Origin: Flaccisagitta enflata
Lineage: Eukaryota
Assembly: GCA_965153355.1 (NCBI GenBank)
Contig: OZ231126.1
Coordinates: forward strand, 2,418,001-2,482,000
Direction of reading: 5' to 3'
Length of the DNA: 64,000 nt
Part shown: piece by piece, positions 12,028 to 50,756 of the stretch
How the letters are laid out: every line of letters starts with the position of its first letter
Position numbering within the stretch: the stretch's first letter is position 1
Translations under genes and position numbers: made by a program
Notes under the pieces: model-generated
Database searches by the model: none
What the model was told of the DNA's origin: nothing
The model's input: the letters and a program-made list of their open reading frames with translations, nothing else

Positions 12028-12075
12028 AAACTGTCCATTTCACGTTTTCTCAATAGCTCGTTTCTCCTCTGGCAG

Positions 12076-12350: not shown

Positions 12351-12531
12351 GTAAGTTGCCTTAGTTTTTAGGAGAGATTGCCAGTCGATCCGTCCGTTAT
12401 CGGAAAAGCTTTTCAATTGCGATTGTGGTTTTGGTATTACTACCCCCGCCTAACCTCACGCTTTTCTTTGGGATGCTATAGACAAAATACATGGAAGCAA
12501 GTTGGTTTAAAAAATAAGTCATTTGGTACAG

Positions 12532-15912: not shown

Positions 15913-15986
<74 letters not shown>

Positions 15987-18276: not shown

Positions 18277-21200
18277 CAGGGTGGGGAACGGTACCAAAGT
18301 TTTAGCACTTTTTAGCGCGTTTTTAGCACCGAGACTTGGGCGTTTTTCCGACTTTTCCTTTTTGTTGGAGTTGATGACCCGTCGACGCAAACCCTGTCCC
18401 GACGCGAGGGGTTTCATTTATCACCGTTTTCCGCGAAAAATGAGCCGCGGAAATTTTCCGCTTGAAAAGTTAGAGTTCGAATTCTAATTGTTAGAATTCG
18501 AACTCTAACTTTTAGAATTCGAATTCTAATTGTTAGAGTTCGGGTTTGAACTCTAACTTTAAGAGTTCAAGCTTGAATTCTAATTTTTAGAGTTTGAGTT
18601 TGAACTCTAATATTTAGAATTCGAATTCTAATTTTTAGAATTTGAGCTTGAACTCTAATTTTTAGAATTCGAATTCTAATTTTTAGAATTAGAGCTTGAA
18701 CTCTAATATTTAGAATTTGAATTCTAATTTTTAGAATTCAAGCTTGAACTCTAATTTTCAGAATTCAAATTCTAATTTTTAGAATTCTACTTCTATTTTT
18801 AGAATTCGGGCTTGAACTCTAGTTTTGGGAATTCAATTTCTAATTTTTAGAATTCAAGAATAGACTCTAATTTTTAGAATTCGAATTCTGATTTTTCAAA
18901 TTAAAACTTGAACTCTAATTTTCAGAATTCATTTTCTAACCCCGAGGTACTCCATCATGGACTTCAAGGTACACCATCATGGACTTCAAGGTACACCATC
19001 ATGGACTTCAAGGTACGCCATCATGGACTTTGAGGTATGCCATCATGGACTAAAAGGTATGCCATCTTTGATCGCGCAGGTGGAGTACGCCGTCTTCTGC
19101 AAAATTTATGACATTTTAAGCTGGCGCTCGGCGCTAGAGTCAAACTCGAAAAGTTGGAGTCTAAAAGTTAGAGTCAAATTTTTAGACTCTAACTTTTAGA
19201 GTCTAAAAGTTGGAGTCTAAAAATTCGACTCTAACTTTTAGAGTCTAAAAATTAGAGTCGAATTTTTAGACTCTAACTTTTCGAGTTTGACTCTAACTTT
19301 AGAGTCTAAAAATTAGAGTCAAATTTTGAGACTCTTTTAACTTTTCGAGTTGGACTCTAACTTTCAAGAGTCTAAAAATTAGAGTCGAATTTTTGGAATA
19401 CCTTTTAGAGTCAAAACCTTAGTCAAATGTTTACTCTTAATTATCGAGTTTGACTCTTTAACTCTCTGAGTTTGATTCCAACTTTTTGAGTTTGACTCAC
19501 TATTTGAGTTTGACTCCGATTGCTTTCTAGTTTGACTCCAAATGTATTCGAGTTTTACTCCAACTGTATTGAATTAGACTAACATGAGTGAAATTGAACT
19601 GTCTGACTGCAACTAATTGAGCGCAATAATTGTCTATCTCGATGCTAGTAAATGATACTTATTCCTCAAAATGAAAGTAGACTCGTGTTCTCGACTTTTT
19701 GACCACGTAAAACCGATTATTTGACAAGGTCTGTGTGGTAGTAAATTCTGTTGTGTAGAGACTTATATGCCATCATGGACTTCAAGATGTGCCCTCATGG
19801 ACCTCAAGGTATGCCATCATGGATTTCAAGCTATGTCATCATGGACTGCAAGGTATGCCACTTTGCTATTTCCAGGGTGGAGAACGCCACAGATTTTTTA
19901 GCACTTTTTAGCGCGTTTTTAGCACCAAGACTTTGGCGTTTTTCCGACTTTTCCTTTATGTTGGAGTTGATTACCCGTCGATGCGAACCCTGTCCCGACG
20001 CGAGGGGCTTCATTTATCACCGTTTTCCGTGAAAAATGAGCCGCGGAAATTTTCCGCTTGAAAAGTTAGAGTTCGAATTCTAATTGTTAGAATTCGAACT
20101 CTAACTTTTAGAATTCGAATTCTAATTGTTAGAGTTCGGGTTTGAACTCTAACTTTTAGAGTTCGAACTTGAATTCTAATTTTTAGAGTTCAAGTTTGAA
20201 CTCTAATATTTAGAATTCGAATTCTAATTTTTAGAATTCGAGCTTGAACTCTAATTTTTAGAATTCGAATTCTAATTTTTAGAATTCGAATTCTAATTTT
20301 TAGAATTCGAATTCGAATTTTTAGAATTCGAATTTCAATTTTTAGAATTCAAGCTTGAACTCTAATTTTCAGAATTCAAATTCTAACTTTTAGAATTCGA
20401 CTTCTATTTTTAGAATTCAGGCTTGAACTCTAGTTTTGGGAATTCGATTACTGATTTCTAGAATTCAAGTATGGACCCTAATTTTTAGAGTTTGAATTCT
20501 GATTTTTCAAATTGAAGCTTGAACTCTAATTTTCAGAATTCATTTTCTAACCCCGAGGTACGCCATCATGGACTTCAAGGTATGCCATCATGGACTTCAA
20601 GGTATGCCATCATGGACTTCAAGGTACGCCATCATGGACTTCAAGGTATGCCATCATGGACTTCAAGGTATGCCATCATGGACTTCAAGGTATGCCATCT
20701 TTGATCGCGCAGGTGGAGTATGCCGTCTTCTGCGAAATTTATGACATTTTAAGCTGGCGCTCGAATTGGACTCTAAAAGTTAGAGTCAAACTTGAAAAGT
20801 TGGAGTCTAAAAGTTAGAGTCGAATTTTTAGACTCTAACTTTTAGAGTCTATAAGTTGGAGTCTAAAAATTTGACTCTTAACTTTTAGAGTCAAAAAATT
20901 AGAGTCGAATTTTTAGACTCTAACTTTTCGAGTTTGACTCTGACTTTTAGAGTCTAAAAATTAGAGTCAAATTTTAGACTTTTTAACTTTTCGAGTTGCA
21001 CTCTAACTTTCAGAGTCTAAAAATTAGAGTCGAACTTCTGGACTACCTTTCAGAGTCAAAACCTTAGTTGAATTTTTAGACTCTTAATAATCGAGTTTGA
21101 CTCTAACACTCTGAGTTTGATTCCAACTTTTCGAGTTTTACTCACTACCATTTGAGTTTGACTCTAACCGTACTCGAGTTTGACTCTGATTGCTTTCTTG

Positions 21201-21780
21201 TTTGACTCCAAATGTATTCAAGTTTTACTCCAACTGTATATGAGTTAAATTCAACTGTCTGATTGCAACTAATTGAGCGCAATAATTGTTCATCTCGATG
21301 CTAGTAATTGATATTTATTCCTCAAATTGAAAGTAGACTCGTGTTCTTGACTTTTTGACCACGTAAAACCGATTATTTGACACGGTCTGTGTGGTAGTAA
21401 ATTCTGTCGTATAGAGACTTATATGCCATCATGTACTTCAAGGTGTGCCCTCATAGACCTCAAGGTATGCCATCATGGACTTCAAGGTATGCCATCATGG
21501 ACTTCAAGGTATGCCATCATGGATTTCAAGGTATGCCATCATGGACTTTGAGGTATGCCATCATGGACTTCGAGGTATGCCATCATGGACTTCGAGGTAT
21601 GCCATCATGGACTTCGAGGTATGCCATCATGGACTTCGAGGTATGCCATCATGGACTTTGAGGTATGCCATCATGGACTGCAAGGTATGCCATCATGGAC
21701 TGCAAGGTATGCCATCATGGACTTCAAGGTATGCCATCATGGACTTCAAGGTATGCCGTCATGGAGTTGTCAACAAAAAC
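18277..21780 (+). repeat. Tandem duplication of a ~1.6-kb terminal module (copies start 18277 and 19873)
   Basis: Both copies read: terminus, GAATTC-rich ~21-bp satellite, 22-bp satellite, GATCGCGCAGGTGGAGTA spacer, GACTCTAA satellite, unique spacer, 22-bp satellite. Confidence 0.9.
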
Positions 21781-23399
21781 AGAATTATGTTTTGAAACCA
21801 TTTCCAGAGACCGATTTCTGTAATCATCTCTGCAGAATACTGGTAAAAATGTTTCATGCATTCAGAAATAAGATCATTTAAAAAAATGTGAAATAGCTTC
21901 TAAATGTTAGAATTTTAATTCAAATTTTTTTCAATTCAAGTTCTAATTCCAATTCTAATTTTTTAAAAATCGAGCTTAATCCTTGAATATAAAATCCAGA
22001 TTTCATATTCAATTTTTAGGAATTTGAAATCTGATTTTTAGTTAGCTTCGCGACACCTGGCTATGTTTTACTAGTTCAGTATTTATTAGCTTTGTGAGCT
22101 CACTGCTCCTGCCCATTTGCATGTGAGAGGTGTAGCCATGTATCCAGCCTTGTTAAAAATAAAATTCTAATACTATCTTGGTCAAATTAAGTCCTCGCAA
22201 TTGAATTTAGTTCTTAAACTTTGAAGATTGATCAGAAAAACCTGTTTTCTTCTTACAGAAATTTATTTTAGCATATTTTGGCATTAGATATAGCTTTTAT
22301 AGTGATTGTTATTGTCTCATATAGCAGCGTTACTGATTTGCATGTGACTGGTTTCTCATCTCTTTATCTGTTTTTGCCACTTGGGTTTTATGGTGAGGCT
22401 TGTACTAATTCTATTGGAAATTCTAAACGATTTGAGCTAATGAGCTCTACTTGGTGGCAAATGAAAGCTCTTTTGAAGTTCTTTACAGCGGTCATCGATT
22501 TTCTTATGTGTCTATAATTTCTATGTGTAGAAAATATCCAAATAAAACTGCTGGAATTTCAAAAATGGAAATCAATGATATTTACCTTAGAGATCAAAAT
22601 GAATCATTTTACTATTTCTGCTGTAAAATCTAAAAGAGTTGAGCTACAGAGGTCTGCGTAGTGGTGTTAGATCGCATTTTTGCATAGCTTTCCAGTGGTC
22701 AACAATTTCTATATGTTTGTTGATTAATCTGGCCACAATGTAAGAAAACATGCCGGACTCTTAATTTGACCGAGATAGTACTTAGAATTCAAGTTTGTAT
22801 CTTTGATATGCCATCAATAACTTCCATGTATGCCATCAACAATTACAAGGTATGCCAATTACAACTTTATGTTATGGCTGGTATACCATCAATGATGTCA
22901 ATTGTCAAAGTATACCATCAATGGAGCACTGATAGAGCGCACAAGCTAATAAGGCACCTGTAAGGCATACAATTCGCTGTCCCATGAGCAATTTTTTAGT
23001 TATTTCTATATTGGCAATGAGGCAGCTACATTATAGGGCATAATTTTGCACAGTCCCCTGAAATGTGTCTAGTGAGGTTCAACTGTATGCTTATCACGAC
23101 TTTATGGTGTGCCATCGACGATTCCAAGATGTGCTTTATACAATTTTCAAGGTATGACACTAACAATGTCAACATCCTCCAATTACAATTTTATGGTATG
23201 CCCTCAATGATTTATAAGTATGCCAATTACAACTTCAGGGGGGTTACAGGTTTTTTTTTTATCAGAAGCTAGATTTTTTTTGTAATGATCTCTCGAAAAA
23301 AAATTGTATGTTTACCTATTTCTGGACACAGGTTTCTGCATTTGCTTCTGTTTAGGAAATTCAGGCATGCCAACAAATATAATTACAGAAATCATTATT

Positions 23400-26300
23400 A
23401 TTTTTAGAAAAAAATGCAGAAACCAATTCCTCTTTTCTAAGCCCATTATATATACTCTGAAATAGTTACAGAAATGAGAATTTATTTCTAGAACTATTCA
23501 AAGACATATCTCCCATTTCTGAATATTAAATCCCCCTGTAAACCCCTACCTTATTAGCCCCTCCCAATCTAGGAACTTGACTCAGTAAACAAATTTTGAA
23601 TTGCAGAAATAAACTAAGAAATAATCATTTCTGTAATTATTGCTTTTCTATTAGGTGACACACTATTTACAGAAATGATTTCATTTCTGTGTTTATTTCT
23701 GTAAATGAAAATGAGTGTAATTATGCCCATTTCTAGGATCAAGTTCCTGGATTGGGAGGGGCCATATAGGTAGGGGTTTATTTGGGGTTTTAGTAATCAG
23801 AAATGAATCCATTTCAGTAATTATTTTTAGAAACGCGACCAGTTTTCTGTGGTTGTTTCTGTAATGAAAAAAAAAACCCTTCAAATCAATTCTGCATTAG
23901 TTTCTCTTTTCTAAGCCTATTCTATCATTTTCAGAAATAGTTACAGAAATGAGATTCTATTTCCAGAAATTATCACAGAAATATTTCTCATTTCCGAACA
24001 TTAAATCCCCCTGCAAACCCCTACCTTATTAGCCCCTCCCAATCAAGGAACTTGACCCTGTAAACGAATTTTCAATTGCAGAAATAAACTCAGAAATAAA
24101 ATCATTTCTGTAATTATTGCTGTTCTATAAGGTGACACACTATTTACAGAAATGATTTTATTTCTGTGTTTATTTCTGTAAATAAAAATGAGTGCATGGC
24201 CATGTAAATGAATTTTCTGTTGCAGAAATAAACTCAGAAATGAAATCATTTCTGTAATCATCCCTGTTTTATATGGTGACACACTATTTGCAGAAATGAT
24301 TTTATTTGTGTTAATTTCTGTAGATGAAAATGAGTGTCATTATGCCCATTTCTAGGAACAAGTTCCTGGATTGGGAGGGGCTATAAAGGTAGGGGTTTAT
24401 TGGGGTATTTAGTCATCAGAAATGAAATCCATTTCTGTAATTGTTTCTAAATATGCAACCAGTTTTCTGTAGTTGTTTCTGTAATGATAAAAAACCTTCA
24501 AATCAATTCTGCATTAGTTTCTCTTTTATAAGCCTATCCTTTTATTTCCAGAAATAGTTACAGAAATGAGAATCTATTTCCAGAAATAATCACAGAAATA
24601 TTTCCCATTTCTGTACATTAAATCCCCCTGTAAACCCCTACCTTATTAGCCCCTCCCAATCTAGGAACTTGACCCTGTAAACGAATTTTGAATTGCAGAA
24701 ATGAACTTAGAAATAAAATCGTTTCTGTAATTATTGCTGTTCTATAAGGTGACACACTATTTACAGAAATGATTTTATTTCTGTGTTTATTTCTGTAAAT
24801 GAATGAGTGTATGACCATGTAAATGAATTTTCAATTGCAGAAATGAACTCAGAAATGAAATCATTTCTGTAATCATCCCGGTTCTATAAGGTGACACACT
24901 ATTTACAGAAATGATTTTATTTCTGTGTTTATTTCTGTGAATGAAAATGAGTGTCATTATGCCCATTTCTAGGATCAAGTTCCTGGATTGGGAGGGGCTA
25001 TAAAGGTAGGGGTTTATTGGGGGATTTAGTAATCAGAAATGAAATCCATTTCTGTAGTTATTCATAGAAATGAGACATGGTTTCTGTAGTTGTTTCTGTA
25101 ATGAAAAAAAAAAAACCTTCAAATCAATTCTGCATTAGTTTCTCTTTTCTAAGCCTATTCTATTATTTCCAGAAATAGAGAAATGAGATTCTATTTCCAG
25201 AAATAGTTACAGAAATGAGATTCTATTTCCAGAAATAATCACAGAAATAATTCTCATTTCTGAACATTAAATCCCCCTGTAAACCCCTACCTTATTAGCC
25301 CCTCCCAATCAAGGAACTTGACCCTGTAAACGAATTTTCAATTGCAGAAATAAACTCAGAAATAAAATCATTTCTGTAATTATTGCTGTTCTATAAGGTG
25401 CCACACTATTTACAGAAATGATTTTATTTCTGAGTTTATTCCGGTAAATAAAAATGAGTGTATGACCATGTAAATGAATTTTCAATTGCAGAAATAAACT
25501 CAGAAATGAAATCATTTCTGTAATCATCCCTGTTCTATACGGTGACACACTATTTACAGAAATGATTTTATTTCTGTGTTTATTTCTGTGAATGAAAATG
25601 AGTGTCATTATGCCCATTTCTAGGATCAAGTTCCTGGAATGGGAGAGGCTATAAAGGTAGGGGTTTATTGGGGGATTTATTCATCAGAAATGAAATCCAT
25701 TTCTGTAATTATTCCTAGAAATGAGACCAGATTTCTGTAGTTGTTACTGTAACGTAAAAAAACCTTTGAATCAATTCTGCATTAATTTCTCTTTTCTAAG
25801 CCCATTGTATTATTTCCAGAAATAGTTACAGAAATGAGAATCTATTTCCAGAAATAATCACAGAAATATTTCCCATTCCCGTACATTAAATCCCCCTATA
25901 AACCCCTACCTTATTAGCCCCTCCCAATCTAGGAACTTGACCCTGTAAACAAATTTTGAATTGCAGAAATGAACTTAGAAATAAAATCATTTCTGTGATT
26001 ATTGCTGTTCTATATGGTGACACACTATTTACAGGAATGATTTTATTTCTGTGTTCATTTCTTCAAATGAAAATGAGTGTATGACCATGTAAATGAATTT
26101 TCAATTGCAGAAATAAACTCAGAAATGAAATCATTTCTGGAATCATCCCTGTTCTATATGGTGACACACTATTTGCAGAAATGATTTTATTTGTGTTTAT
26201 TTCTGTAAATGAAAATGAGTGTTGTTATGCCCATTTCTAGGATCGTTCCTGGATTGGGAGGGGCTATAAAGGTAGGGGTTTATTGGGGGATTTAGTCATC

Positions 26301-27850
26301 AGAAATGTAATCTATTTCTGTAAATATTTCTAGAAACGAGACCAGTTTTCTGTAGTTGTTTCTGTAATGAAAAAAACCTTCAAATCTATTCTGCATTAAT
26401 TTCTCTTTTCTAAGCCTACTCTATTATTCCCAGAAATAGTTACAGAAATGAGAATTTATTTCCAGAAATAATCACAGGAATGAGAATTTATTTCCAGAAA
26501 TAATCACAGAAATGAGAATTTATTTCCAGAAATAATCACAGAAATATTTCCCATTTCTGAACATTAAATCCCCCTGTAAACCCCTACCTTATTAGCCCCT
26601 CCCAATCAAGGAACTTTACCCTGTAAACGAATTTTCAATTGCAGAAATAAACTCAGAAATATATTTATTTCTGTAATTATTGCTGTTCTATAAGGTGACA
26701 CACTATTTACAGAAATAATTTTATTTCTGTGTTTATTTCTGTAAATGAAAATGAGTGTATGACCATGTAAACAAATTTTCAATTGCAGAAATAAACTCAG
26801 AAATAAAATCGTTTCTGTAATTATCCCTGTTCTATAAGGTGACACACTATTTACAGAAATGTTTTTATTTCTGTGATTATTTCTGTAAATGAAAATGTGT
26901 GTCATTATGCCCACTTCTAGGATCAAGTTCCGGGATTGGGAGGGGCTATAAAGGTAGGGGTTTATTGGGGGATTTAGTCATCAGAAATGTAATCTATTTC
27001 TGTAATTATTTCTAGAAACGAGACCAGTTTTCTGTAGTTGTTTCTGTAATGAAAAAAACCTTCAAATCTATTCTGCAGTAATTTCTATTTTCTAAGCCTA
27101 TTCTATTATACCCAGAAATAGTTACAGAAATGAGAATTTATTTCCAGAAATAATCACAGGAATGAGAATTTATTTCCAGAAATAATCACAGGAATGAGAA
27201 TTTATTTCCAGAAATAATCACAGAAATATTTCCCATCACTGAATATTAAATCCCCCTGTAAACCCCTACCTTATTAGCCCCTCCCAATCAAGGAACTTAA
27301 CCCTGTAAACGAATTTTCAATAGCAGAAATAAACTCAGAAATAATATCATTTCTGTACTTATTGACGTCCTATAAGCAGACACACTATTTACAGAAATAA
27401 TTTTATTTCTGTGTTTATTTCTGTAAATGAAAATGAGTGTCCATTTATAGGATCAAGTTCCTGGATTGGGCGGGGCTATAAAGGTGGGGGTTTTTTGGGG
27501 ATTTAGTCATCAGAAATGAAATCCATTTTTGTAATTATTTCTAGAAACATCTAACCTCGATACGTAAAAGCAAACTCACTCTTGGGGGAAATAATTTGTT
27601 TCTGTAATTTACAGAAATAAACATGTAAATGAAATCATTTTTGTACAAGTTAGCTTCCTACGAAGAAACACTTTTACTGCAGAAATGATTTTATCTCTGT
27701 TTCTGTCATTCATTAAAAGAATAATTTTGATTAGTTCTAGGAAAAACTTTCTGGATTGGGAGGGCTAAAAGGTGGTTATGAATGGAATTAGTTTCTGTTA
27801 AATATTTTTAGAAACATGTTTCTGTGACTGTTACTAGACTTAAATTAGGT
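23400..27850 (-). repeat. ~620-680-bp complex satellite (ACAGAAAT-rich, internal ~45-bp inverted repeats)
   Basis: AAATCCCCCTGTAAACCCCTACC recurs near 23528, 24003, 24619, 25269, 25888, 26566, 27248. Confidence 0.95.
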
Positions 27851-27919
27851 TTCTGCATTTGTTTCGATTCAGAAAATTTAACAAGGTATCTGAACAATGC
27901 TGCCCTTGGGTGAATTATT

Positions 27920-28082
27920 AAAGTTTGGTTACATTTGACAAATATTCCCAAGTTTGGTTACATTTAACAAATATTCCCAAGTTTGGTTACATTTAACAAA
28001 TATTCCCAAGTTTGGTTACATTTAACAAATATTCCCAAGTTTGGTAACATTTAACAAATATTCCCAAGTTTGGTTACATTTA
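27920..28082. repeat. 29-bp minisatellite AAGTTTGGTTACATTTAACAAATATTCCC (mirror copy ~33947-34063)
   Basis: Directly visible. Confidence 0.95.
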
Positions 28083-28649
28083 TGGTCAGACACGGAATGG
28101 ATGTTTCCAAAGTCAGTTTTGCAACTTGGAGAACTTATGATGGGCGTAGTAATTAGTCCGTGAGGGATCACAAGACCCTCTTCCATATTTCTCGGTTAAG
28201 ATAAGCAAGGAATATCTTTTTTACCAACTAAAATATGTACTGAAGAAATGAATGCTGTAACCAATTCCGTTGACTAAATCCCCTTATAAACTCCTACGTT
28301 TTAACTTTTAAATCCCTCCCAATCCCAATCCATTCTGTACTAGTTGGCTGCCTATAAAGAAACTCACCTCTGCTGAAATGATTACATTTCTGTTGATCGA
28401 CCGATGGATGGATAAAGCTAGTGTGCGACTAAAACATTAGTCCAACGGGTTTGATATCACTTTCATTTGCAAACTCAAATGCAGAATAAAATCATTTCTG
28501 TAGTTGGTGACAGGAAGTCATCTAACATAGGAAGAAAAAATTCTTTCTCTGTGAATAGAGAAGGTGTTGACTGTTAATTGCCCCAATCTGTGATCAAGTT
28601 CCTAGATTGGGAGGCGCTTAAGAGCTAGAGATAACCATAAATAAGATCA

Positions 28650-30430
28650 ATATCTTCTGGACAGGTGTCCATCCTCTGGACGAATGTCCATTCTCTTGAC
28701 GTGTCTATCTTTATGACGCGTCTCTCTTCAGGATGTCATTTCCTCTGGACGAGTGTCTATCCTCTGAAGGAGTGTCTATCCTCCAAACAAGTGTTTATCC
28801 TCTGAATGGTTGTGAAGGAGTGTCTATCCTCCAAACAAGTGTTTATCCTCTGAATAATTGTCAATCCTCTGAACGAGTGTCAATCCTCTGAACGCGTCTC
28901 TATCCTTTGAATGAATGTCTATCCTCTGAACAAGTGTCTATCCTCTGATCAAGTGTCTATTCTCTGAACGAGTGTCTATTCTCTGAACGAGTGTCTATCC
29001 TCTGAACGAGTGTCTATCCTCTGAACGAGTGTCTATCCTCTGAACGAGTGTCTATCCTCTGAGCGAGTGTCATTACTCTCAGGCAGTGTCTATCACTCTG
29101 AGCAGTGCCATCCTCTGAAACGAGTGTCTATCCCTGAACGAGGTGTCTATCCTCTGGTAGTGTATCACTCTGAGCGAGTGTCTATCCTCCTGAGCAGTGT
29201 CTATCCTCTGAACCAGCGTCTATCCTCTGAGCGAGTGTCTATCCTCTGAGCGAGTGTCTATCTCTGAGCAGTGTCTATCCTCTGAGAACGAGTGTCTATC
29301 CTCCCTAAACCAGTGTCTATCCTCTGAGCGAGTGTCTATCCTCTGAACGAGTGTCTATCCTCTGAAGCAGTGTCTATCCTCTGAACGAGTGTCTATCCTC
29401 TGAACGAGTGTCTATCCTCTGAACGAGTGTATGAACAAGTGTCTATCCTCTGAACAAGTGTCTATCCTCTGAACGAGTGTCTATCCTCTGAACAAGTGTC
29501 TATCCTCTGAACAAGTGTCTATCCTCTGAATGAGTGTCTATCCTCTGAACAAATGTCTATCCTCTGAACAAATGTCTATCCTCTGAACGAGTGTCTATCC
29601 TCTGAACAAGTGTCTATCCTCTGAGCAGTGTCTATCCTCTGACAGTGTCTATCACTGAGCAGTGTCTATCCTCTGAGCAGAGTCTATCACTCTGAACAAG
29701 CGTCTATCACTCTAGATGAGCGTCTATCCTCTGGCCAGTGTCTATCACTCTGAGCAGTGTCTATCCTCTTAACCATTGTCTATCATCCTGAATGACTGCT
29801 ATCCTCTGAACCAGATATCTATCCTCTGAGCAGTGTCTATCCTCTGAGCAGTGTCTATCCTCTGAACGAGTGTCACTGTCACTCAGGACAAGTGTCTGTC
29901 CTCAGGACAAGTGTCTGTCCTCTGAACGAGTGTCTGTCCTCAGGACAAGTGTCTGTCCTCTGAACGAGTATCTGTCCTCTGAACAAGTGTCTGTCCTCTG
30001 AACGAGTGTCTGTCCTCTGAACAAGTGTCTATCCTCTGAACGAGTGTCTGTCCTCTGAACGAGTGTCTATCATCTCTGAGCGAGTGTCCTGTCCTCTGAA
30101 CGTGTCTCCTCTGAACAGTGTCTATCCCTCTGAGCAGTGTCTATCACTCTGAGCAGTGTCTATCCTCTGAACGAGTGTCTATCCTCTGAGCGAGTGTCTA
30201 TCCTCTGAGCGAGTGTCTATCCTCTGAACGAGTGTCTATCCTCTGAACGAGTGTCTATCCTCTGAACGAGTGTCTATCCTCTGAACGAGTGTCTATCCTC
30301 TGAACGAGTGTCTATCCTCTGAACGAGTGTCTATCCTCTGAACGAGTGTCTATCCTCTGAACGAGTGTCTATCCTCTGAACGAGTGTCTATCCTCTGAAC
30401 GAGTCTCTATCCTCTGAACGAGTGTCAATC
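28650..30430 (+). repeat. 19-bp satellite GAGTGTCTATCCTCTGAAC
   Basis: Perfect units at 30220-30420, noisy units internally. Confidence 0.97.
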
Positions 30431-30597
30431 TCGTCAGCTTTAAACCCTGAAAGTAATGTCATATCGTTGATTACCGCTTATTGGTTGCTTTGGTGTGGGT
30501 CGTGGATCCGATGCTGTTGCCGCGTGAATTTGCTAAAAGTGGAATGCGCTAAAAGGTGCTAAAACGGTTTGTGACTTTTTCGGAAACTGCTCAGGCC

Positions 30598-31218: not shown

Positions 31219-31379
31219 GGCCTGAGCAGTTTCCGAAAAAGTCACAAACCGTTTTAGCACCTTTTAGCGCATTCCACTTTTAGCAAATTCTCTCGGCAAC
31301 AGCATCGGATCCACGACTCACACCAAAGCAACCAATAGCGGTAATCAGCAATGACATTACTTTCCCGGGGTTTGAAGCT

Positions 31380-39578: not shown

Positions 39579-40483
39579 ACCACTAAGCAGACCTCTGTAG
39601 CTCAACTCTTTTAGATTTTACAGCAGAAATAGTAAAATGATTCATTTTGATCTCTAAGGTAAATATCATTAATTTCCATTTTTGAAATTCCAGCAGTTTT
39701 ATTTGGATATTTTCTATACATAGAAATCATAGACACATAAGAAAATCGATGACCGCTGTAAAGAACTTCAAAAGAGCTTTCATTTGCCACCAAGTAGAGC
39801 TCATTAGCTCAAATCATTTAGAAGCCTCACCATGAAACCAAAGTGGCAAAAAACAGATAAAAGAGATGAGAAACCAGTCACATGCAAATCAGTAACGCTG
39901 CTATATGAGACAATAACAATCACTATAAAAGCTATATCTAATGCCAAAATACGCTAAAATAAATTTAAAGAAAACAGGTTTTTCTGATCAATCTTCAAAG
40001 TTTAAGAACTAAATTCAATTGCGAGGACTTAATTTGACCAAGACAGTATTAGAATTTGAATTTTAACAAGGCTGGATACATGGCTACGCCTCTCACATGC
40101 AAATGGGCAGGAGCAGTGAGCTCACAAAGCTAATAAATACTGAACTAGTAAAACATAGCCAGGTGTCGCGAAGCTAACTAAAACTCAAATTTCAAATTCT
40201 AAAAATATCAGTCAATTAATATCTTAAAATCAGAATACAAATTCCTAAAAATTGATTATGAAATCTGTATTTTATATTCAAGGATTAAGCTCGATTTTTA
40301 AAAAATAAGAATTGGAATTAGAGCTTGAATTGAAAAAAATTTGAATTAACATTCTAACATTTAGAAGCTATTTCACATTTTTTAAAATGATCTTATTTCT
40401 GAATGCATAAAACATTTTTGCCAGTATTCTGCAGAGATGATTACAGAAATCGGTCTCTGGAAATGGTTTCAAAAACTTATTCT

Positions 40484-40805
40484 CCATGATGGCATACCTT
40501 GAAGTCCATGATGGCATACCTTGAAGTCCATGATGGCATACCTTGAAGTCCATGATGGCATACCTTGAAGTCCATGATGGCATACCTTGAAGTCCATGAT
40601 GGCATACCTTGAAGTCCATGATGGCATACCTTGAAGTCCATGATGGCATACCTTGAAGTCCATGATGGCATACCTTGAAGTCCATGATGGCATACCTGGA
40701 AGTCCATGATGGCATACCTGGAAGTCCATGATGGCATACCTTGAAGTCCATGATGGCATACCTTGAGGTCCATGAGGGCACACCTTGAAGTCCATGATGG
40801 CATAT
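40484..40805 (-). repeat. 22-bp satellite CATCATGGACTTCAAGGTATGC (mirror of ~21423-21765)
   Basis: Directly visible. Confidence 0.97.
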
Positions 40806-42499
40806 GTCTCTATACAACAGAATTTACTACCACACAGACCATGTCAAATAATCGGTTTTACGTGGTCAAAAAGTCAAGAACACGAGTCTACTTCAATTTG
40901 AGGAATAAATATCAATTACTAGCATCGAGATAAACAATTATTGCGCTCAATTAGTTGCAGTCAGACAGTTGAATTTAACTCATATACAGTTGGAGTAAAA
41001 CTTGAATACATTTGGAGTCAAACTAGAAAGCAATCAGAGTCAAACTCCAGTACAGTTAGAGTCAAACTCAAATAGTGAGTAAAACTTGAAAAGTTAGAAT
41101 CAAACTCAGAGAGTTAAGAGTCAAACTCGATTATTAAGAGTCTAGAAATTCGACTAAGGTTTTGACTCTGAAAGGTAGTCCAAAAATTCGACTCTAATTT
41201 TTAGACTCTGAAAGTTAAGAGTCCAACTTGAAAAGTTAAAAGAGTGTAAAATTTTGACTCTAATTTTTAGACTCTAAAAGTTGGAGTCAAACTCGAAAAG
41301 TTAGTCAAAAAATTCGACTCTTATTTTTAGACTCTAAAAGTTAGAGTCGAATTTTTAGACTCCAACTTTTAGACACTACAAGTTAGTCTAAAAATTCGAC
41401 TCTAACTTTTAGACTCCAACTTTTCGAGTTTGACTCTAACTTTTAGAGTCCAATTTGAGCGCCAGCTTAAAATGTCATAAATTTCGCAGAAGACGGCGTA
41501 CTCCACCTGCGCGATCAAAGATGGCATACCTTGAATTCCATGATGGCATACCTCAAAGTAAATGATGGCGTACCTTGAAGTCCATGATGGTGTACCTTGA
41601 AGACCATGATGGTGTACCTTGAAGTCCATGATGGTGTACCTTGAAGTCCATGATGGCGTACCTCGGGGTTAGAAAATGAATTCTGAAAACTAGAGTTCAA
41701 GCTTCAATTTGAAAAATCAGAATTCAAATTCTAAAAATTAGGGTCCATACTTGAATTCTAAAAATCAGAAATCGAATTCCCAAAACTAGAGTTCAAGCCT
41801 GAATTCTAAAAATAGAAGTCGAATTCTAAAAGTTAGAATTTGAATTCTGAAAATTAGAGTTCAAGCTTGAATTCTAAAAGTTAGAATTTGAATTCTGAAA
41901 ATTAGAGTTCAAGCTCGAATTCTAAAAATTAGAATTCGAATTCTAAAAATTAGAGTTCAAGCTCGAATTCTAAAAATTAGAATTTGAATTCTAAATATTA
42001 GAGTTCAAACTTGAACTCTAAAAATTAGAATTCAAGTTCGAACTCTAAAAGTTAGAGTTCAAACCCGAACTCTAACAATTAGAATTCGAATTCTAAAAGT
42101 TAGAGTTCGAATTCTAACAATTAGAATTCGAACTCTAACTTTTCAAGCGGAAAATTTCCGCGGCTCATTTTTCGCGGAAAACGGCGGTAAATGAAGCCCC
42201 TCGCGTCGGGACAGGGTTCGCGTCGACGGGTAATCACCACTAACGAAGAGGGAAAGTCGGAAAAACGCCAAAGTCGCGATGCTAAAAACGCGCTAAAAAG
42301 TGCTAAAAAATCTGTGGCGTTCCCTGGGCCTGAGCAGTGTCCATAACCGTATAGCACGTTTTAGCGCACCCCATTTTTAGCACCTTTTTAGCGCCTTACC
42401 TCAGGCAACCCCATTGAGATCCACGAACAACGCGATCGCGACCCATAAGTGGGAAATGGCGACAGAACATGATCATGAACCAAATCAAAGATTTATGAG

Positions 42500-43005
42500 C
42501 AGGCAGATTAAATTTTGAGCTGCTGGCTAGGGTTTCAAACTGGCGGTTAGCGTATGGAGCCGGCAGTTTGCATTTGCAGCTGGCAACTAGTTTAGAGTTG
42601 GTGGTAAGAGATTGCAGCTTGGGGTTAGTAGTTGGAGCTGTTGATTAGGGTTTGGAGCGAGTGGTTAGGGTTTGGAGCGAGTGGTTAGGCTTTACAGCTT
42701 GCATTTGGGGTTTTGAGCTGGCAGTTAGGATTTGGAGCAGGCAGCTACTGTTTTGTTCTTACAATTTATATGGGCAGCTGGCGGTTAGGCTATGGTGCTG
42801 GCGGAGGCAGTTAGGGTTCAGAGCTGGTGGTTAGGGTTTAAGCTGAGGGCTTGGAACTGGAGGTAAAGTTTGGTACTGGCGGAGTGGCGGTTAGGGTTCA
42901 GAGCTGGTGGTTAGGGTTTGAGCTGAGGGCTTGGAACTGGCGGTATGAGTTGAGGGCTGGCGGTATGGGTTAAGGCTGGCAGTTAGGGTTTGGAGCTGGT
43001 GGATA
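42500..43005 (+). repeat. Degenerate ~20-bp repeat containing TTAGGG (GGTTAGGGTTTGGAGCTGGC)
   Basis: Multiple GGTTAGGG cores with GAGCTGG spacers. Confidence 0.8.
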
Positions 43006-43214
43006 ACCTCTGAGCTGACACTGAGCCATACGTTCAAGGTTTAGATTATCAGTAGAACAGTAAGGTTCTTAAAAAAATTTACCAAGAATGAGAAAGAGTT
43101 GATAATTTCTAAGAAATCTGATGTGCTAAAACAGGGGGGTCTTAACAATAAGATGACCTTTACATTCATAATGCAGAAAATCTAGCAAGTCATACGGAAT
43201 AGAGCAACTTCATT

Positions 43215-44220
43215 GATAGAGAGGATAGACACTTGTTCAGAGGATAGACAGCATTCAGAGGATAGACATAGTTCAGAGGAGGCACAAGGATGACCTCATT
43301 GAAGGACACTGTTCAGAGGATAGACACTCGTTCAGAGGAATAGACACAATTCAGGTAAAACCTCGTTAGATATTACACTCGTTCAGAGGATAGACACTCG
43401 TTAAGATGACATGTTCAGAGGATTCTGACACTCGTTCAGAGGATGAACACTCGTTCAGAGAGGTAGACACTCATTCAGAGGATAGACACTCGTTCAGAGT
43501 AACACTGTTCAGAAGGTGAACATCTGAACCTCCCGTTGAGATAGACACTCTAGTTGAGGTGAGCCTCTCACATTCAGAGGATGAACACTTGTTCAGAAGA
43601 GTGAATACTCGTTTTAGAGTTGAACCTCATTGAAAGTTACTCGTTTGAAGGATGGCCTCATTTGAAGATGACATAGTTTGAAAGGATGAGCCTTCGTTCA
43701 GAGGGGATAGACACTCATTGAAAGGATAGACACTCGTTCAGAGGATAGACACTTGTTCAGAGGATAGACACTCGTTCAGGATGACACTCGTTCAGAGGAT
43801 GAACACTCGTTCAGAGGATAACACCCGTCAGAGGATGAACCTTGATTGAAGGATAGACATGTTCAGAGGATAGACACTCGTTCAGAGGATAGACACTCGT
43901 TCAGAGGATAGACACTCGTTCAGAGGATAGACACTCGTTCAGAGGATAGACACTCGTTCAGAGGATAGACACGCATTCAGAGGATAGCAACGCATTCAGA
44001 GGATAGCAACGCATTCAGAGGATAGTCACGCATTCAGAGGATAGTCACGCATTCAGAGGATAGTCACGCATTCCGAGGATAGTCACGCATTCAGAGGATA
44101 GTCACGCATTCAGAGGATAGTCACGCATTCAGAGGATAGACATGCATTCAGAGGATGGACATGCATTCAGAGGATGGACACGCATTCAGAGGAAAGACGC
44201 GCATTCAGAGGATAGACACA
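43215..44220 (-). repeat. Third 19-bp satellite array (with variant GCATTCAGAGGATAGTCAC block)
   Basis: Directly visible. Confidence 0.95.
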
Positions 44221-44352
44221 TAAACCCCTACCTTTATAGCCCCTCCCAATCTAGGAACTTTATCTTATGAATGGTCATAATGACACTCAATTTCATTTAC
44301 AGAGATAAACACAGAAATAAAATCATTTCTGTAAATAGTGTGTCACCTTATA

Positions 44353-45548
44353 ACTATGGCAAAAAAAAAAGAGCGAACAACTTGTTTGTCAATGTTTCAC
44401 ATCCAAGCAATGTGAGAAACATAGCAAAATCCATGACTACTTTAAAGATCTGCGAAAGATCTTTCAAGTGAGACCTTGCTGGATGTTCTAGCTCTATACG
44501 TTTAGAAATGGCATAAGAATGAAGACAGCTGGTCAAGAATTAGGAAATTCACTACACCACTTTCATGGGTTATCTTTATTCTAACATAAAAACTAAACGC
44601 ATTGAGTTAAGAATTTGTTCTTGGCGCCATTTTAAAGAAAATTTGAAACTTTAATTTGCTCATGGAAAACGAGTAGCTAGGACAATCCTGAGCTGCATCG
44701 TTGACAAAAACGGAAAGACTAAAATTCCTCATTGGAAAAAAGTTGAAATAAGCACTTTTTTCAATCAGCGATTTTTTCTTCAAACCATCGCCATTTCTAA
44801 ACGAATAAAGCTACAATGACCAGCAACGTCGCATTTGGAAGATTTTTTTGTCATGGATTTTCTATCGTTCAGGCCCATAGTTAACACTGTGCATTAAAAA
44901 AAATTCCAAGTGGAAAGTCATACAACTGTGGATTTTTCTGCATTTTTGAGCAGTATTGGGGTGTAAGAGCATGTAACTAGCAAAAACAAAATCATTCCCC
45001 GAGCACTTTTTGAGTAATCTTAAAAATAGAAAAAAATTAAATCTATTTCTAATGCAGATTCTAATGTATTGTCTTGACCCATTTTTTGATTCCATATTGT
45101 TATTCTATACAAAATTTCCTTTCATTTGATAGGTCACACTGTATGATTTTCTTATAAAAATTAGGTTTAAACATTTTGAGCCACTGTTACTTTTTTTTAA
45201 CTAAAAAAATGAAACTTTTATTCTTTGCAAAAGTATAAAGTGTGTCCTATCAAATAAATAAAAGGGAATTTTGCATAGAATAACAATATGGAATCAGAAA
45301 TTTAATCAACACATCCCAGAAGAAACTGCATTAAAATTAGGCCTTTTTTTTCTGATTTTGAAGATTACTCAAAAAGCGCTCAGGGAATGATTTTATTTTT
45401 TCTAGTTACATGCTCTTACACCCCAATTCAGCTCAAAATTACGGAAAAACCCACAGTTATATGACTTTTCACTCAGATTTGTTTTAAAAGCACAGTGTTA
45501 AGCAGCAACTAGCAAAACAAAGTGTTTGCTTTTTTTCTTTGCCATAGT
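44353..45548. mobile_element. TA-TSD non-autonomous DNA element
   Basis: TA|ACTATGGCAAA...TTTGCCATAGT|TA interrupts the satellite consensus CACCTTATAGAACAGGG. Confidence 0.88.
44885..45497. mobile_element. TTAA-flanked foldback MITE nested in the TA element
   Basis: TTAA|CACTGTGC...GCACAGTG|TTAA; arms of ~280 bp are mutually reverse-complementary. Confidence 0.82.
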
Positions 45549-47986
45549 TAGAACAGGGATAATTACAGAAATGATTTTATTTCTGAGTTTATTTCTGCAA
45601 TTAAAAATAAATCCCTACCTTTATAGCCCCTCCCAATCCAGGAACTTGATCCTATAAATGGTCATAATGACACTCATTTTCATTTACAGAAATAAAATCA
45701 TTTCTGAAAATAGTGTGTCACCTTATAGAAAAGGAATAATTACAGAAGTGATTTTATTTCTGAGTTTATTTCTGCAATTGAAAATTCGTTCACAGGGTCA
45801 AGTTCCTAGATTGGGAGGGGCTAATAAGGTAGGGGTTTACAGTGACTTAATGTCTGAGATGGGAAATATTTAGGGACTATTTCTTGAAATAAATTCTCGT
45901 TTCTGTAACTATTTCTGGAAATAATTTCTCGTTTCTGTAACTATTTCTGGAAATAAATTCGCAATCTCTGTAACTATTTCTGGAAATAAAGGGGTTTACA
46001 GGGGGATTTAATGTTCAGAAATGGGAAATATTTCTGGGATTATTTCTGGAAATAAATTCTTGTTTCTGTAACTATTTCTGGAAATAAATTCTTGTTTCTG
46101 TAACTATTTCTGGAAATAAATTCGCAATTCTGTAACTATTTCTGGAAATAAATTCTCGTTTCTGTAACTATTTCTGGAAATAAATTCTCATTTCTGTAAC
46201 TATTTCTGGAAATAAAATCTCGTTTCTGTAACTATTTCGAAAGAGAAATCATTGTAGAACTGATTTAAAGGTTTTCTTTTTCTTACAGAAACAACTACAG
46301 AAAACTGGTCTTTTGTTTTGAGAAATGAATACAGAAATGGGATTTCACTCTTGATACTAAATCCCCCATTAAACCCCTACCTTAATAGCCTCCCAATCCA
46401 CGAACTTGATCCAATAATGGTTATAACGAACGAAGAAGCGCAATGTTTTCTGTAACCTAAAATGCATGAAATAGGTAATATCTATCAGCATTTAGAATGC
46501 AGAAAACTAGACAGAAAATAATTTGATTTCTAGAAATCATCACAAAATCAATTTCATTCTAAATCCCCCTGTAAACCCCTACCTTCTAGCCCCTCCCAAT
46601 CTAGAAACTTAACTCCTTAAATAACAGATAATGATATTTCTCAATTACAGAAAACAACACAGAAATGAATCTGTGATCATTTCTGTAATGAATAAAAGAA
46701 TCATTATTTGTTATTCAAGGAATTAAGTTCCTAGATTGGGAGGGGCTAAAAAGGTAGGGGTTTACAGGGGATTTAGAATGAAATTGATTTCTGTGATTTT
46801 TTCTAGAAATCAAAAAGTTTTCTGCAATGTTTTCTGTAAACTAAAATGAATGAAATAGGCGAAATCTATCAGCATTTGAAATGCAGAAAACCTGACAGAA
46901 AACTATTTGTTTTCGAGAAATCAGTACAAAAATCAATCCTATTCTAAATCCCCCTAAAAACCCCTACCTTTTTAGCCCCTCCAAATCTAGGAACTGAACT
47001 CCTCAAATAACAGGGGGATTTAATGACCAGAAATGGGAAATATTTCTGTGATTATTTCGGGAAATAAACCATTTCTTTAGCTATTTCTGAGAATAATAGA
47101 GTGGGCTTAGAAAGGAGAAATTAATGCAGAGTTGATTTCGAGGTTTTTATCATTACAGAAACAACTATAGAAAAACTGATCTTGTTTCTAGAAATATTTA
47201 CATTTCTGAAAGACCTTATTGCTCAATAAACCCCTACCTCTATATAGAACTCGATCCTTTAAATTGGCACAATGACACATTTTCATATGCAGAAATAAAG
47301 AACTAAAATCATTTCTGTAAAAAAAGTGTGTGTTTTTGTAAGACAGCAATTAGTACAAAAATGATTTAATTTCTGAGTTAATTTCTGTGTTTGTTTCTGT
47401 TATTTACAGAAATAAACGCGTGAATGAAATAATTTCTTTAGAGAATGAGTTCTTATTTAGGAACAAACTAGTACTGAAATGATTTTATTACTGTGTTTAT
47501 GTCATGTTTTACTATTTATAGGATCAAGTTCCTAGGTAAGGGTTTGTAGGGGGATTAAACCAACAGAAACAGAATTAGTTTCTGCATTTGTTTCTCGAAA
47601 TGAATATGATTTCTGTACATGTTTCTGTTGGCATTAAAAGATATGACTTGCAATACCTTGATAAATTTCCTGAACAGAAACAAATGCTGAAACCTAATTG
47701 GTATCTGGAATTATGTATTGACACACATTTTTTTAAAGAAATAATTACAGTCATGAATCTCATTTCTAATAATTCCCCCTCCCCATTATGAAATCGTTGA
47801 TGGCATACCATGAAGTCATAATTGACATACAGTGTATTTTGAAATCGTTGAGGGCATACAAATGATACCATGAAATTGCAATTGGAAGACCATGACATTT
47901 TTAGTGGCATACCTTGCTATTTGTTGATGGTATTCCTTAAAATCGTTAATGGCCTACCTTGAAATCGTTAACGCGACTTAAAATAA

Positions 47987-48310
47987 AAGGGGTGTATATA
48001 GTTCCACAACCTTTGATTATTTCCCCCCCCCTGCCTTTGATTTTCTTCCCAGCGTCGCATTAAAAAATCAAAGATTTTCTTCCCCATACAGCAATAAAAG
48101 TGTGTTTATGGTTTAAATTGTAGTGTTAAATTGTGTTTTATTTATCATGTTTAATGATTTGTTACTGCCAATAGTTATATTTTCCCTAAGTTTTCTTTTT
48201 TTTTTCTTTTTTCCCCTCCTTCCTTTTCCTTCGGTCCTTCCCTTTCTCCAAACCTTTTGATTATTCCCCCCCCCACCGGGGGGAGGAATACGGAACAATA
48301 TACAGGCCTG
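47987..48310. mobile_element. Probable hAT-type MITE
   Basis: AGGGGTGTATATAGTTCC vs GGAACAATATACAGGCCTG imperfect TIR; repeated TTTGATTATTCCCCCCC subterminal motif; TSD not clear. Confidence 0.5.
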
Positions 48311-48689
48311 AAAAATTATTTTTAATTTTAAAAGTAATAAGTCAAATTCCAGAATAATGAAGTCGACTTCTAAAGTTAGAAGTCAAAAACTTAAAATCAG
48401 AACTCGAATTCCAAAAATTAGAATATAAATTCGATATTTTAGAATTTAAGATCGGTTTTTGAAAATCAGAATTGGAATTGGGGCTTGAACTCTTAAAATA
48501 CGAATCAAAATTCTAACTTTTAAATTTTACAGTTCTTTTCTGCATACATGAAACATATTTTCGCCAGTATTCTACAATGATGACTACAGAAGTTTGTTTC
48601 CGGAAATGGTTACAGAAACTAATTCCGTTTCTGATGACTTTACCCCACTGAAAACCCGTAACTTCTTGGCGGAACCATGTCATCATACC

Positions 48690-49818
48690 TTTTAAGTCCA
48701 TGATGGCATACTCTGAAATCTATGATGTCGTACCTTGAAGTCCACGGTGGGGCGCCTTGAAATCCATGATGGCGTACCTTGTAGTCCATGATGGCGCACC
48801 TTGAAGTCCATGATGGCGTACCTTGTAGTCCATGATGGCATATCTTTAAGTCCATGATGGCATATCTTTAAGTCCATGATGGCACACCTTGAAGTCCATG
48901 ATGGCACACCTTGAAGTCCATGATGGCACACCTTGAAGTCCATGATGGCACACCTTGAAGTCCATGATGGCACACCTTGAAGTCCATGATGGCACACCTT
49001 GAAGTCCATGATGGCACACCTTGAAGTCCATGATGGCACACCTTGAAGTCCATGATGGCACACCTTGAAGTCCATGATGGCACACCTTGAAGTCCATGAT
49101 GGCACACCTTGAAGTCCATGATGGCACACCTTGAAGTCCATGATGGCACACCTTGAAGTCCATGATGGCACACCTTGAAGTCCATGATGGCACACCTTGA
49201 AGTCCATGATGGCACACCTTGAAGTCCATGATGGCACACCTTGAAGTCCATGACAGCATACTCCTTGAAGTCCATGATGGCATACCTTGAAGTCCATGAT
49301 GGCATACCTTGAAGTCCATGATGGCATACCTTGAAGTCCATGATGGCATACCTTGAAGTCCATGATGGCATACCTTGAAGTCCATGATGGCATACCTTGA
49401 AGTCCATGATGGCATACCTTGAAGTCCATGATGGCATACCTTGAAGTCCATGATGACATACCTTGAAGTCCATGATGACATACCTTGAAGTCCATGATGA
49501 CATACCTTGAAGTCCATGATGGCATACCTTGAAGTCCATGATGGCATACCTTGAAGTCCATAATGGCATACCTTGAAGTCCATGATGGCATACCTTGAAG
49601 TCCATGATGGCATACCTTGAAGTCCATGATGGCATACCTTGAAGTCCATGGTGGCATACCTTGAAGTCCATGGTGGCATACCTTGAAGTCCATGGTGGCA
49701 TACCTTGAAGTCCATGGTGGCATACCTTGAAGTCCATGATGGTATACTTTGACGTCCATGATGGCATACCTTGAAGTCCAAGGTGGCACACCTCGAAATC
49801 CATGAAGGCACACCTTGA
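48690..49818 (-). repeat. Long 22-bp satellite array (~50 units)
   Basis: Directly visible; source of three overlapping spurious ORFs. Confidence 0.98.
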
Positions 49819-49824
49819 AAGTTG

Positions 49825-50400
49825 GATTCAAACTCAAATAGAGTTAGAGACAAACTAAAATAGTTAAAGAGTCAAACTCGGAAAGTTAGAGTCAAACTCG
49901 GAAAGTTAGAGTCAAACTCGGAATGTTAGAGTCAAACTCGAATATTCAGAGTCTAAAAATTCGAATAACGTTTTGAGTGTAAAAGATTTCTAAAAATTCG
50001 ACTCTAATCTTTAGAGTCTAAATGTTCGAGTCAAACTCAAAAAGTTAGAGTCTAAAAATTCGATTCTAATTTTTAGAGTCTAAATGTTAGAGTCAAACTC
50101 AAAAAGTTAGAGTCTAAAAATTTGACTCTAACTTCTAGAGTCTAAAAGTTAGAGTCTAAAAATTTGACTCTAATTTTTCAGACTCTAAAAGTTAGAGTCA
50201 AACTCGAAAAGTTAGAGTCTAAAAATTCGACTCTAACTTTTAGAGTCTAAAAGTTAGAGTCAAACTCAAAAAGCTAGAGTCTAAAAATTTGACTCTAACA
50301 ATTCGAGTTTGACTCTCACTTTTAGACTCTAAAAGTTAGAGTCGAATTTTTAGACTCTAACTTTTCGAGTTTGACTCTAACTTCTAGAGTCCAATTCGAG
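49825..50400. repeat. GACTCTAA/TTAGAGTC quasi-palindromic satellite (also ~19135-19570, 20765-21235, 41000-41455)
   Basis: Directly visible. Confidence 0.92.
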
Positions 50401-50756
50401 CGCAAGCTTAAAATGTCACAATTTTGATGAAGACGGCGTACTGCACTTGCGCGATCAAATGGGAAGGGATAACACTGAGCAAACATCTCAGCGGGAGAGA
50501 GTGCAAGTCGGAAAAACGCCCAAGTCCCGGTGCTAAAAACGCGCTAAAAAGTGCTAAAACTTTGGTACCGTTCCCCACCCTGATATATGTAAACTGTAAG
50601 TGAAGACTTGAATAGTAGAATTAGCCTAGCTGGCCAAAAATTAGCAAAAACTGGCCAAAACAGCCCAAAACTATCCAAAATGAGGAAATATGGAATAACA
50701 CAAGGTATCATCATACAATTCACTTTGGCTCCCTTCACCAACTCTCACTGAAATAG

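Follow-up and report, generated by a model that had tools for sequence, protein, structure and literature searches.

A non-coding, satellite-laden element family in Flaccisagitta enflata: a 32-kb block better described as a nest of copies, plausibly of foldback type, than as a single transposed unit

How does a block of about 32 kb without genes, composed of satellites in an ordered arrangement and closed on both sides by inverted CAGGG termini, come to stand where it does, and is it one mobile element or several? In the present study, we analysed this block, positions 18277-50582 of a 64,000-nucleotide stretch of Flaccisagitta enflata DNA (contig OZ231126.1; the whole stretch is called the window here). 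The original prediction, made from the letters of the window alone, took the block for one very large non-autonomous hAT-like element that carries and disperses a set of satellites as one cassette. The non-coding, satellite-laden, dispersed element family is real, so the part of the prediction that concerned a family stood. The single 32-kb element did not find support, and the block is better described as a nest of copies, because no target-site duplication (TSD) was found, the truncated left unit has a body of the same type as the two central units whereas the right unit belongs to another subfamily, and the units differ in age.

The units were defined by self-BLAST and unit-to-unit chaining, which gave four of them, named P, A, B and C from left to right (Table 1). 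This agrees with the predicted unit that occurs three times in a fixed order together with an extra terminal module at 18277, with C being diverged and having gaps. In A and B, the modules follow each other as head, GAATTC-type palindromic satellite, 22-bp satellite, GAGTC-type palindromic satellite, spacer, ~620-bp satellite, spacer with a 29-bp array, 19-bp satellite and tail. The order in C is the same with gaps: the first palindromic satellite is missing and a 20-bp TTAGGG-like array is added. P holds a head with a type-I tip, the GAATTC-type palindromic satellite, a 22-bp array, the GAGTC-type palindromic satellite and a short 22-bp array, in which it ends; 12 bp of filler and then the head of A follow. 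A and B are collinear, with 85-93% identity per block and 92-97% in the non-array segments, and C matches them in equal order and in a patchy manner (76-97%). The orientation of the arrays relative to the ends is constant in A, B and C, and each full unit carries about seven repeat families, whose periods range from 14 to 620 bp. Of 18277-50582, 62% is tandem repeat, compared with 17-22% of the flanks. The predicted lack of a protein-coding open reading frame was confirmed, since all 94 stop-to-stop frames of at least 55 amino acids inside the element are without a Pfam domain having a self-passing stretch. The Pfam matches obtained there were repeat-summed artefacts of the 22-bp array only (0 stretches), and Rfam and tRNA searches of the element gave 0 matches.

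The two full copies A and B face each other across a central spacer, S. The inverted arms of A-S-B, of about 11 kb each (19873-30667 and 31149-42319), follow the foldback plan, with tandem repeats in the arms and a short non-coding middle domain. The palindrome enters S by 63 bp from each side (to 30667 and 31149) and leaves a loop of 481 bp; its innermost arms, 30479-30667 and 31149-31337, are 96% identical. The edges of S are short-form head-like sequences, CAGGGAA(G/A)GCTAAAAAC... Over their length, the arms differ by 3-8% and carry arm-specific indels, which argues against an assembly fold-back artefact.

The head is the verified terminus of the family. It starts with CAGGGTGG(G/A)GAAC, and the left outer terminus of the block is identical to the reverse complement of the right one at 77 of 78 positions, both beginning with CAGGG, as the original prediction had seen. 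The motif TTTTAGC occurs exactly three times, pointing inward, in each of the four heads and three times, inverted, in each of the three tails, against a background of 0.1-0.4 per kb. The head aligns with the reverse-complemented tail over about 30 nt, with the triple motif set in by 22 nt at the head end and by 39 nt at the tail end, and the palindromic satellites adjoining the heads have a CTAAAAA/TTTTTAG core in common with the head motif. The tip types are found in pairs: type I in P and C, which form the outer inverted pair, and type II in A and B, which form the inner one. The upstream flanks of the three window heads at 18277, 19873 and 50582 are unrelated to one another.

The tail ends in ...GCTCAGGCCCAGGGAA. 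The predicted inner end of the unit was recovered in three copies, and in none of them is it a free end, as all three window tails run straight into short-form head-like sequence (CAGGG and then AA, without TGGRG), namely the head of B after C and the edges of S after A and B. In the head of B, which is fused to the tail of C (...GGCCCAGGGAA/CGCCACAGA...), the full tip is missing its first bases. The predicted limits of the units held as listed, apart from an overlap at 42322/42327, which proved to be this fusion junction. The tails were not traceable outside the window through open frames, as the tail-tip frames have at most 31 amino acids, except for the frames of the B/C junction (at most 79 amino acids), which read into the head of B.

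A reading frame is open through every head (…ALFSAFLAP.L.RFSD…; 18275-18484, 19871-20080 and, on the minus strand, 42124-42326 and 50411-50584), and a second frame is open on the opposite strand of the heads (MKPLASGQG…KNALKSAK…); both are kept in the copies from ENA assemblies described below. The head frames (ALFSAFLA...) were used as search handles only, and there is no evidence that they are coding.

To follow the family beyond the window, the contigs of four public runs from 3 studies (X1, X2, X3 and X7) were placed at no less than 85% identity on a 3.6-kb test stretch, 39600-43220. All 30 bins of this stretch were covered in three of the four runs, and many of the placed contigs were diverged; for example, a non-reference letter at head position 42279 was carried by 14, 13 and 7 distinct contigs. 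The 22-bp array is joined by contigs to the spacers on both of its sides, and the tail is linked in this way to the 20-bp array, which indicates that other copies keep the module order over a few hundred bases at the least. The read joints that skip 41519-42247 carry 38 letters, all 38 of them identical to the head body of C (50460-50497), so that C-type heads are common elsewhere; deletion variants of the family are also visible as read joints. A metagenome contig of 2.2 kb (X3 record 21) spans a tail-to-head junction of the C/B type, with an identity of about 87%. In all four runs, loose ends occur near 39610 with letters that are absent from the window; A and B thus share a breakpoint at about 39610 that most family copies lack, which suggests that they are sister arms of one element. 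In one X7 contig, the copy of the spacer at 40029-40050 goes on after ...GATAGTAT with ACAGGGTG, which may be another head inside the unit (7 letters visible).

Part of the region 17500-27400 is held by 20 of the 24 listed public runs (10 studies), with a word share of 0.33 in 2 single-organism runs and of 0.05-0.21 in 18 marine, seawater or plankton metagenomes, and the family is detectable in marine metagenomes of 9 separate studies; the DNA of this marine animal is thus frequent in plankton samples. The head-frame search yielded six proteins predicted from ENA assemblies. Five of these (P0124, P0125, P0127, P0132 and P0133) are free heads, whose resemblance to the window has its limit precisely at the codon with the first C of CAGGG. 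Their flanks are all different and are unrelated to the window, except for a microsatellite-like flank in P0124, and their tip and body types and a back-translation check indicate five different copies. The sixth protein, P0126 (17.6-kb contig), encodes a tail and then a short-form type-II head, the same junction as that of C/B. Three tip types and two head-body types were found among the four window and six ENA copies. Hence, the head is base-precise at CAGGG in eight flank contexts (three of them in the window, five in metagenome assemblies), which is what characterises the end of a mobile element; a T directly precedes the free head in five of the eight.

The expected occurrence of termini and modules beyond this locus was therefore borne out, with thousands of contigs (four runs, 3 studies) bridging module boundaries and heads lying beside 5 outside flanks. 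The idea of a satellite cassette was upheld as regards the order, which other copies keep over at least the few hundred bases bridged, but strict linkage of the modules was not, since a variant of the 22-bp satellite is present in a neighbouring foldback (12778-17190) and, in reads, beside AT-rich repeats of that element's type. A head-frame profile search against 1.84 billion representatives gave no new copies (7 matches, of which 4 were known and 3 were long repetitive proteins taken as chance). An exact 23-nt head core had 0 matches in metagenome, genome and viral contig collections, and an exact 30-nt stretch of the 22-bp satellite had 0 in metagenome and viral contig collections. The 22-bp and 19-bp satellites were not found in the papers searched, where six 12-14-nt strings matched 11 papers, in all of them as chance primers.

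On this evidence, we hold it somewhat more probable than all other explanations together that four copies of a single non-coding, high-copy, non-autonomous mobile family of the foldback or terminal inverted repeat (TIR) type make up the 32 kb as a nest, with A-S-B as a 22.4-kb foldback. P would be a truncated and C a diverged copy, and their near-identical, outward type-I heads would produce the apparent 32-kb 'TIR'. A transposase encoded elsewhere would bind the TTTTAGC clusters and cut at the CAGGG head, and any segment between two inverted heads, including multimers, could then be moved. The satellites would ride along, and their copy number would change in place by slippage and unequal exchange. 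Copies may have inserted into or beside one another and rearranged afterwards. We infer the cut-and-paste chemistry, the binding of the motif, the order of nesting and the intron location beyond the window; the tail-to-head junction, for its part, is a recurrent, old and propagated structure.

Several results weigh against the foldback-type nest. The most general is that no TSD was found at any pairing of ends. At 18277/50582 there is no direct repeat of 8 bp or of other length (GTTTTAAG vs ATATATGT), so that the 8-bp duplication of hAT elements was not recovered and hAT membership is not established. The same holds for the head and tail of A (GCTATTTC vs GGCTAAAA), for the heads of A and B that bound A-S-B (GCTATTTC on the left and the tail of C on the right) and for the head and tail of C, whose flanks are without a match, and the flanks of S are inverted and not direct. 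The tips of head and tail are not inverted repeats of each other and have CAGGG..AA in common in direct orientation. Since the head tip of B is incomplete, one of the termini of A-S-B is not intact. The tail-to-head junction is found repeatedly, in diverged copies (B/C in the window, X3 record 21 and P0126), which a simple foldback does not predict and which fits tandem multimers or rolling-circle replication better. None of the 224 frames of the window has a transposase domain, and nowhere was a complete element observed that has both of its ends together with an empty site. The contigs placed on 39600-43220 at 85-99% identity numbered 4891 (X1), 7105 (X2), 1278 (X3) and 205 (X7), figures that are not copy numbers, as the stretch is without a single-copy control. 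The dispersal is evidenced by the eight flank contexts only, and these do not tell genome-wide spread from presence in a few regions.

Helitrons insert between A and T and Helentrons between T and T, in both cases without a TSD, and a rolling-circle family of Helitron or Helentron-like, non-autonomous kind is the main rival. Here each unit would be one element with a 5' head, a 3' tail and no TSD, the tail-to-head junctions would be concatemers formed by read-through of the terminator, and the satellites would be the central tandem repeats typical of HINEs. The absence of a TSD at all pairings tested speaks for it, as do the recurrence of the tail-to-head junction in three diverged copies, the subterminal inverted repeats at both ends, the T upstream of free heads in five of eight and the direct CAGGG..AA at both ends, as would result from the cutting of one strand at each of them. 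The available parts of two papers describe HINEs with central satellite arrays and no TSD (PMC7492417) and whole Helitrons in tandem (PMC12628747). Nevertheless, we consider it unlikely, because a 3' palindrome is absent from the tails (in all three, DNA folds of the final 80 nt gave z of +0.79 to +1.04 vs shuffles) and the flanks do not show a T/T or A/T site: the bases upstream of the window heads are G, C and T and those after the tails are G, A and C, all within family sequence. Moreover, the junction is not a tail end plus a full head start, as 5 or 12 nt are missing, and the subterminal repeats of about 30 nt with a triple motif are not the 11-12 bp subTIRs of HINEs given in the accessible text of PMC7492417. 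A free tail is likewise unseen, and two inverted head pairs with matched tip types would be unexpected. Somewhat less probable again is a non-autonomous element of a new kind with two different ends, a CAGGG head and a tail ending in direct CAGGG..AA, both with an inverted triple TTTTAGC, whose units of 8-11 kb would multiply in multimers, direct as well as inverted. In this case, blocks of 20-30 kb would seed an ordered 'library' of seven satellites as one cassette, and the enzyme would be neither a classical hAT transposase nor a classical Helitron one.

The hAT elements have an 8-bp TSD and a tip of the YARNG type, and Ac/Ds carries copies of a short motif subterminally at both ends. That 18277-50582 moved as a single very large non-autonomous hAT-like unit, with the 78-bp heads as TIRs and the cassettes as cargo, is doubtful, and we place it behind both proposals just discussed. 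The inverted CAGGG outer termini fit the YARNG consensus, both flanks are unique sequence of the same intron, and the recurrent tail-to-head junctions show that multimeric blocks do get propagated. Against this stand the lack of a direct repeat at the ends and an interior of four units that differ in age and orientation. P has an A/B-type body, C belongs to another subfamily in which the first palindromic satellite is missing, the arms are unmatched beyond 78 bp, and the identities (92-97% between A and B, 89% between P and A, and a patchy 76-97% for C) fit serial events. Least probable of all, and by our estimate very unlikely, is a non-mobile local block grown by segmental duplication and inversion, or an assembly artefact. 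The identity of the A/B palindrome is highest near its centre (96%), as in duplication palindromes, and the junctions of the locus are read from the assembly. However, the outside copies largely refute a local block: public assemblies have heads beside 5 other flanks, the unit is covered by thousands of diverged contigs (4 runs), the unit boundaries are base-precise in several contexts, and the 3-8% divergence and arm-specific indels of the arms are unlike a chimeric-read artefact. A classical tandem satellite or macrosatellite was also considered and rejected, because the units lie in both orientations and their ends are base-precise at CAGGG in the 8 contexts.

Foldback transposons with tandem repeats in their arms include FB and Galileo of Drosophila and TU of sea urchin, and the nest of foldback-type copies favoured here can be set beside such systems. 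In Tetris of Drosophila virilis, the TIRs reach 1,735 bp and contain repeats of 220 bp, and the TSD is 8-10 bp long, according to the part of its description that was available (PMC4079207). Like Tetris foldbacks as they appear in that text, the present family is non-coding and has long inverted arms made of a terminal flanking domain, tandem repeats and an inner domain around a short middle domain; there are many rearranged or partial copies, the arm repeats also form independent arrays, and the repeats near the ends resemble the terminal motif. Unlike Tetris as described there, the arms are about 11 kb long, hold about seven repeat families and not one, and have no TSD that we could find, and the tail, with which the arm ends on its inner side, is also connected head-to-tail with further units. 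With hAT non-autonomous elements and MITEs (miniature inverted-repeat transposable elements), the family has in common the CAGGG tip and the subterminal motif copies, and the neighbour at 12778-17190 has an 8-bp TSD. It departs from hAT non-autonomous elements in the missing 8-bp TSD, in head and tail tips that are not inverted repeats, in the lack of a linked transposase and in a size far beyond the typical.

The HINEs offer the other close comparison. In the accessible portion of the work on the Pacific oyster, Cg_HINE and Helentrons have one short array between two end modules, no TSD, a preference for TT sites and a 3' palindrome (PMC7492417). A review, as far as its available text goes, gives an account of 'shuffled' loci, in which carriers are nested, truncated and tandemised, and of Helitrons arrayed in tandem (PMC12628747). 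Like the HINEs treated in the first of these sources (Cg_HINE and DINE-1), the family is a dispersed non-autonomous carrier of satellites between two conserved end modules, with subterminal inverted repeats and no TSD, and like the carriers in the second it shows tandem copies of whole elements and 'shuffled' loci of nested and truncated copies. It is unlike the HINEs of these texts in having no 3' palindrome, no apparent TT insertion site and a subterminal repeat of about 30 nt with a triple motif, and it has seven arrays in 8-11 kb where a HINE has one short array. The principle of transposon-borne satellites is known; what sets the present case apart is its unusual scale, with units of 8-11 kb and a 22-kb foldback, the set of about seven arrays in a fixed order, and the joining of units both tail-to-tail and tail-to-head.

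Table 1. Positions of the units, their modules and their ends in the window
Feature	Positions	Strand	Remarks
Left outer terminus	18277-18354	+	Type-I head tip CAGGGTGGGGAACGGTACC..., three inward TTTTAGC
Unit P, truncated copy	18277-19872 (1.6 kb)	+	89% to A over 1-1644, 90% to B
Unit A, full copy	19873-30604 (10,732 bp)	+	
A, head	19873-20065		
A, palindromic satellite 1 (GAATTC type)	20066-20541		
A, 22-bp arrays	20556-20699, 21422-21765		
A, palindromic satellite 2 (GAGTC type)	20795-21239		
A, degenerate 22-bp-like segment	22668-23427		Not in B
A, ~620-bp satellite	23578-27440		
A, 29-bp array	27921-28082		
A, 19-bp satellite	28651-30430		
A, tail	30431-30604		
Central spacer S	30605-31211 (607 bp)	.	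32 TTTTAGC motifs, both orientations
Unit B, full copy, inverted	31212-42319 (11,108 bp)	-	
B, tail	31212-31400		
B, 19-bp satellite	31400-33341		
B, 29-bp array	33947-34063		
B, ~620-bp satellite	34841-39579		7.7 copies
B, 22-bp arrays	40483-40804, 41520-41663		
B, palindromic satellite 2	40984-41449		
B, palindromic satellite 1	41674-42138		
B, head	42139-42319		Short form
Unit C, diverged copy	42320-50582 (8,263 bp)	-	No palindromic satellite 1
C, tail	42320-42520		
C, 20-bp TTAGGG-like array	42540-42980		
C, 19-bp satellite	43220-44219		
C, 32-bp array	45876-46238		
C, 22-bp satellite	48684-49819		
C, palindromic satellite 2	49817-50388		
C, head	50389-50582		Type I
Conserved tail tip ACTGCTCAGGCCCAGGGAA (19-mer)	30586-30604 (+), 31212-31230 (-), 42320-42338 (-)		Exactly 3 matches vs 0.00 expected in shuffles
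C tail-to-B head fusion junction	42300-42340	-	...GCTCAGGCCCAGGGAA/CGCCACAGAT...
Right outer terminus	50505-50582	-	Type-I head tip

Some of the arrays have a structure of their own. The ~620-bp satellite of B shows a higher-order period of 1207 bp (92%; 34844-39579), and its monomer contains 144-bp and 32-bp sub-repeats, of which the 32-bp one is found as an array by itself in C. The 20-bp array of C has TTAGGG-like cores, GGTTAGGGTTTGGAGC, and has no counterpart in A or B.

As regards the setting, six exon-like blocks at 10220-12756 of the window (plus strand) correspond to residues ~10-421 of the phosphorylase b kinase alpha subunit (PHKA), with the Glyco_hydro_15 domain. A conserved PHKA exon reached no more than 84% identity to any protein, and its named matches, at 75-83%, came from molluscs, insects and other animals. 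The remaining ~800 residues were not found within the next 51 kb of the window, which implies a very long intron; everything from 12757 onward, including 18277-50582, would thus belong to a repeat-filled PHKA intron of more than 51 kb. A paralogous empty site joining the two flanks of the block was sought in the window and was not found. The window as a whole holds microsatellites and many satellites.

A separate foldback-type element of 4.4 kb, 12778-17190, begins about 20 bp past the PHKA exon. It has terminal inverted repeats of 540 bp (92%) and a perfect 8-bp TSD, CTCTTCAA (12770-12777 and 17191-17198), and its non-coding interior combines AT-rich repeats with two satellites, one of 19 bp (14409-14912) and a variant of the 22-bp one (16205-16389), the latter being the only sequence common to the 32-kb region and the rest of the window. 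This neighbour is a clean satellite-carrying foldback with a TSD, which indicates that the genome does mobilise such structures. A repeat family with units of 166-218 bp containing CATAGGCAAAGGGTAG occurs in the left flank (5622-6053) and inside the 12778-17190 element (13824-14324 and 15431-15905). An open frame of 552 amino acids (2965-4623, plus strand), rich in charged residues and without a Pfam match, lies directly after long (AC)n and (AG)n tracts (2051-2518). In the right flank, 56008-57552 consists of a 772-bp unit present twice in tandem with 99.87% identity, which indicates a very recent duplication.

The locus touches two open questions, namely the way in which satellites become scattered over gene-rich DNA and the means by which a shared satellite 'library' is maintained in a species. 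The known carriers (HINEs, Tetris and MITEs) each move one short array, and here one unit carries about seven. If mobility is confirmed, whole sets of satellites would be dispersed together and foldback arms would reach about 11 kb. Such elements would also readily give rise to inversions and palindromes within genes, the 32-kb region itself sitting, in all probability, in an intron near a coding exon.

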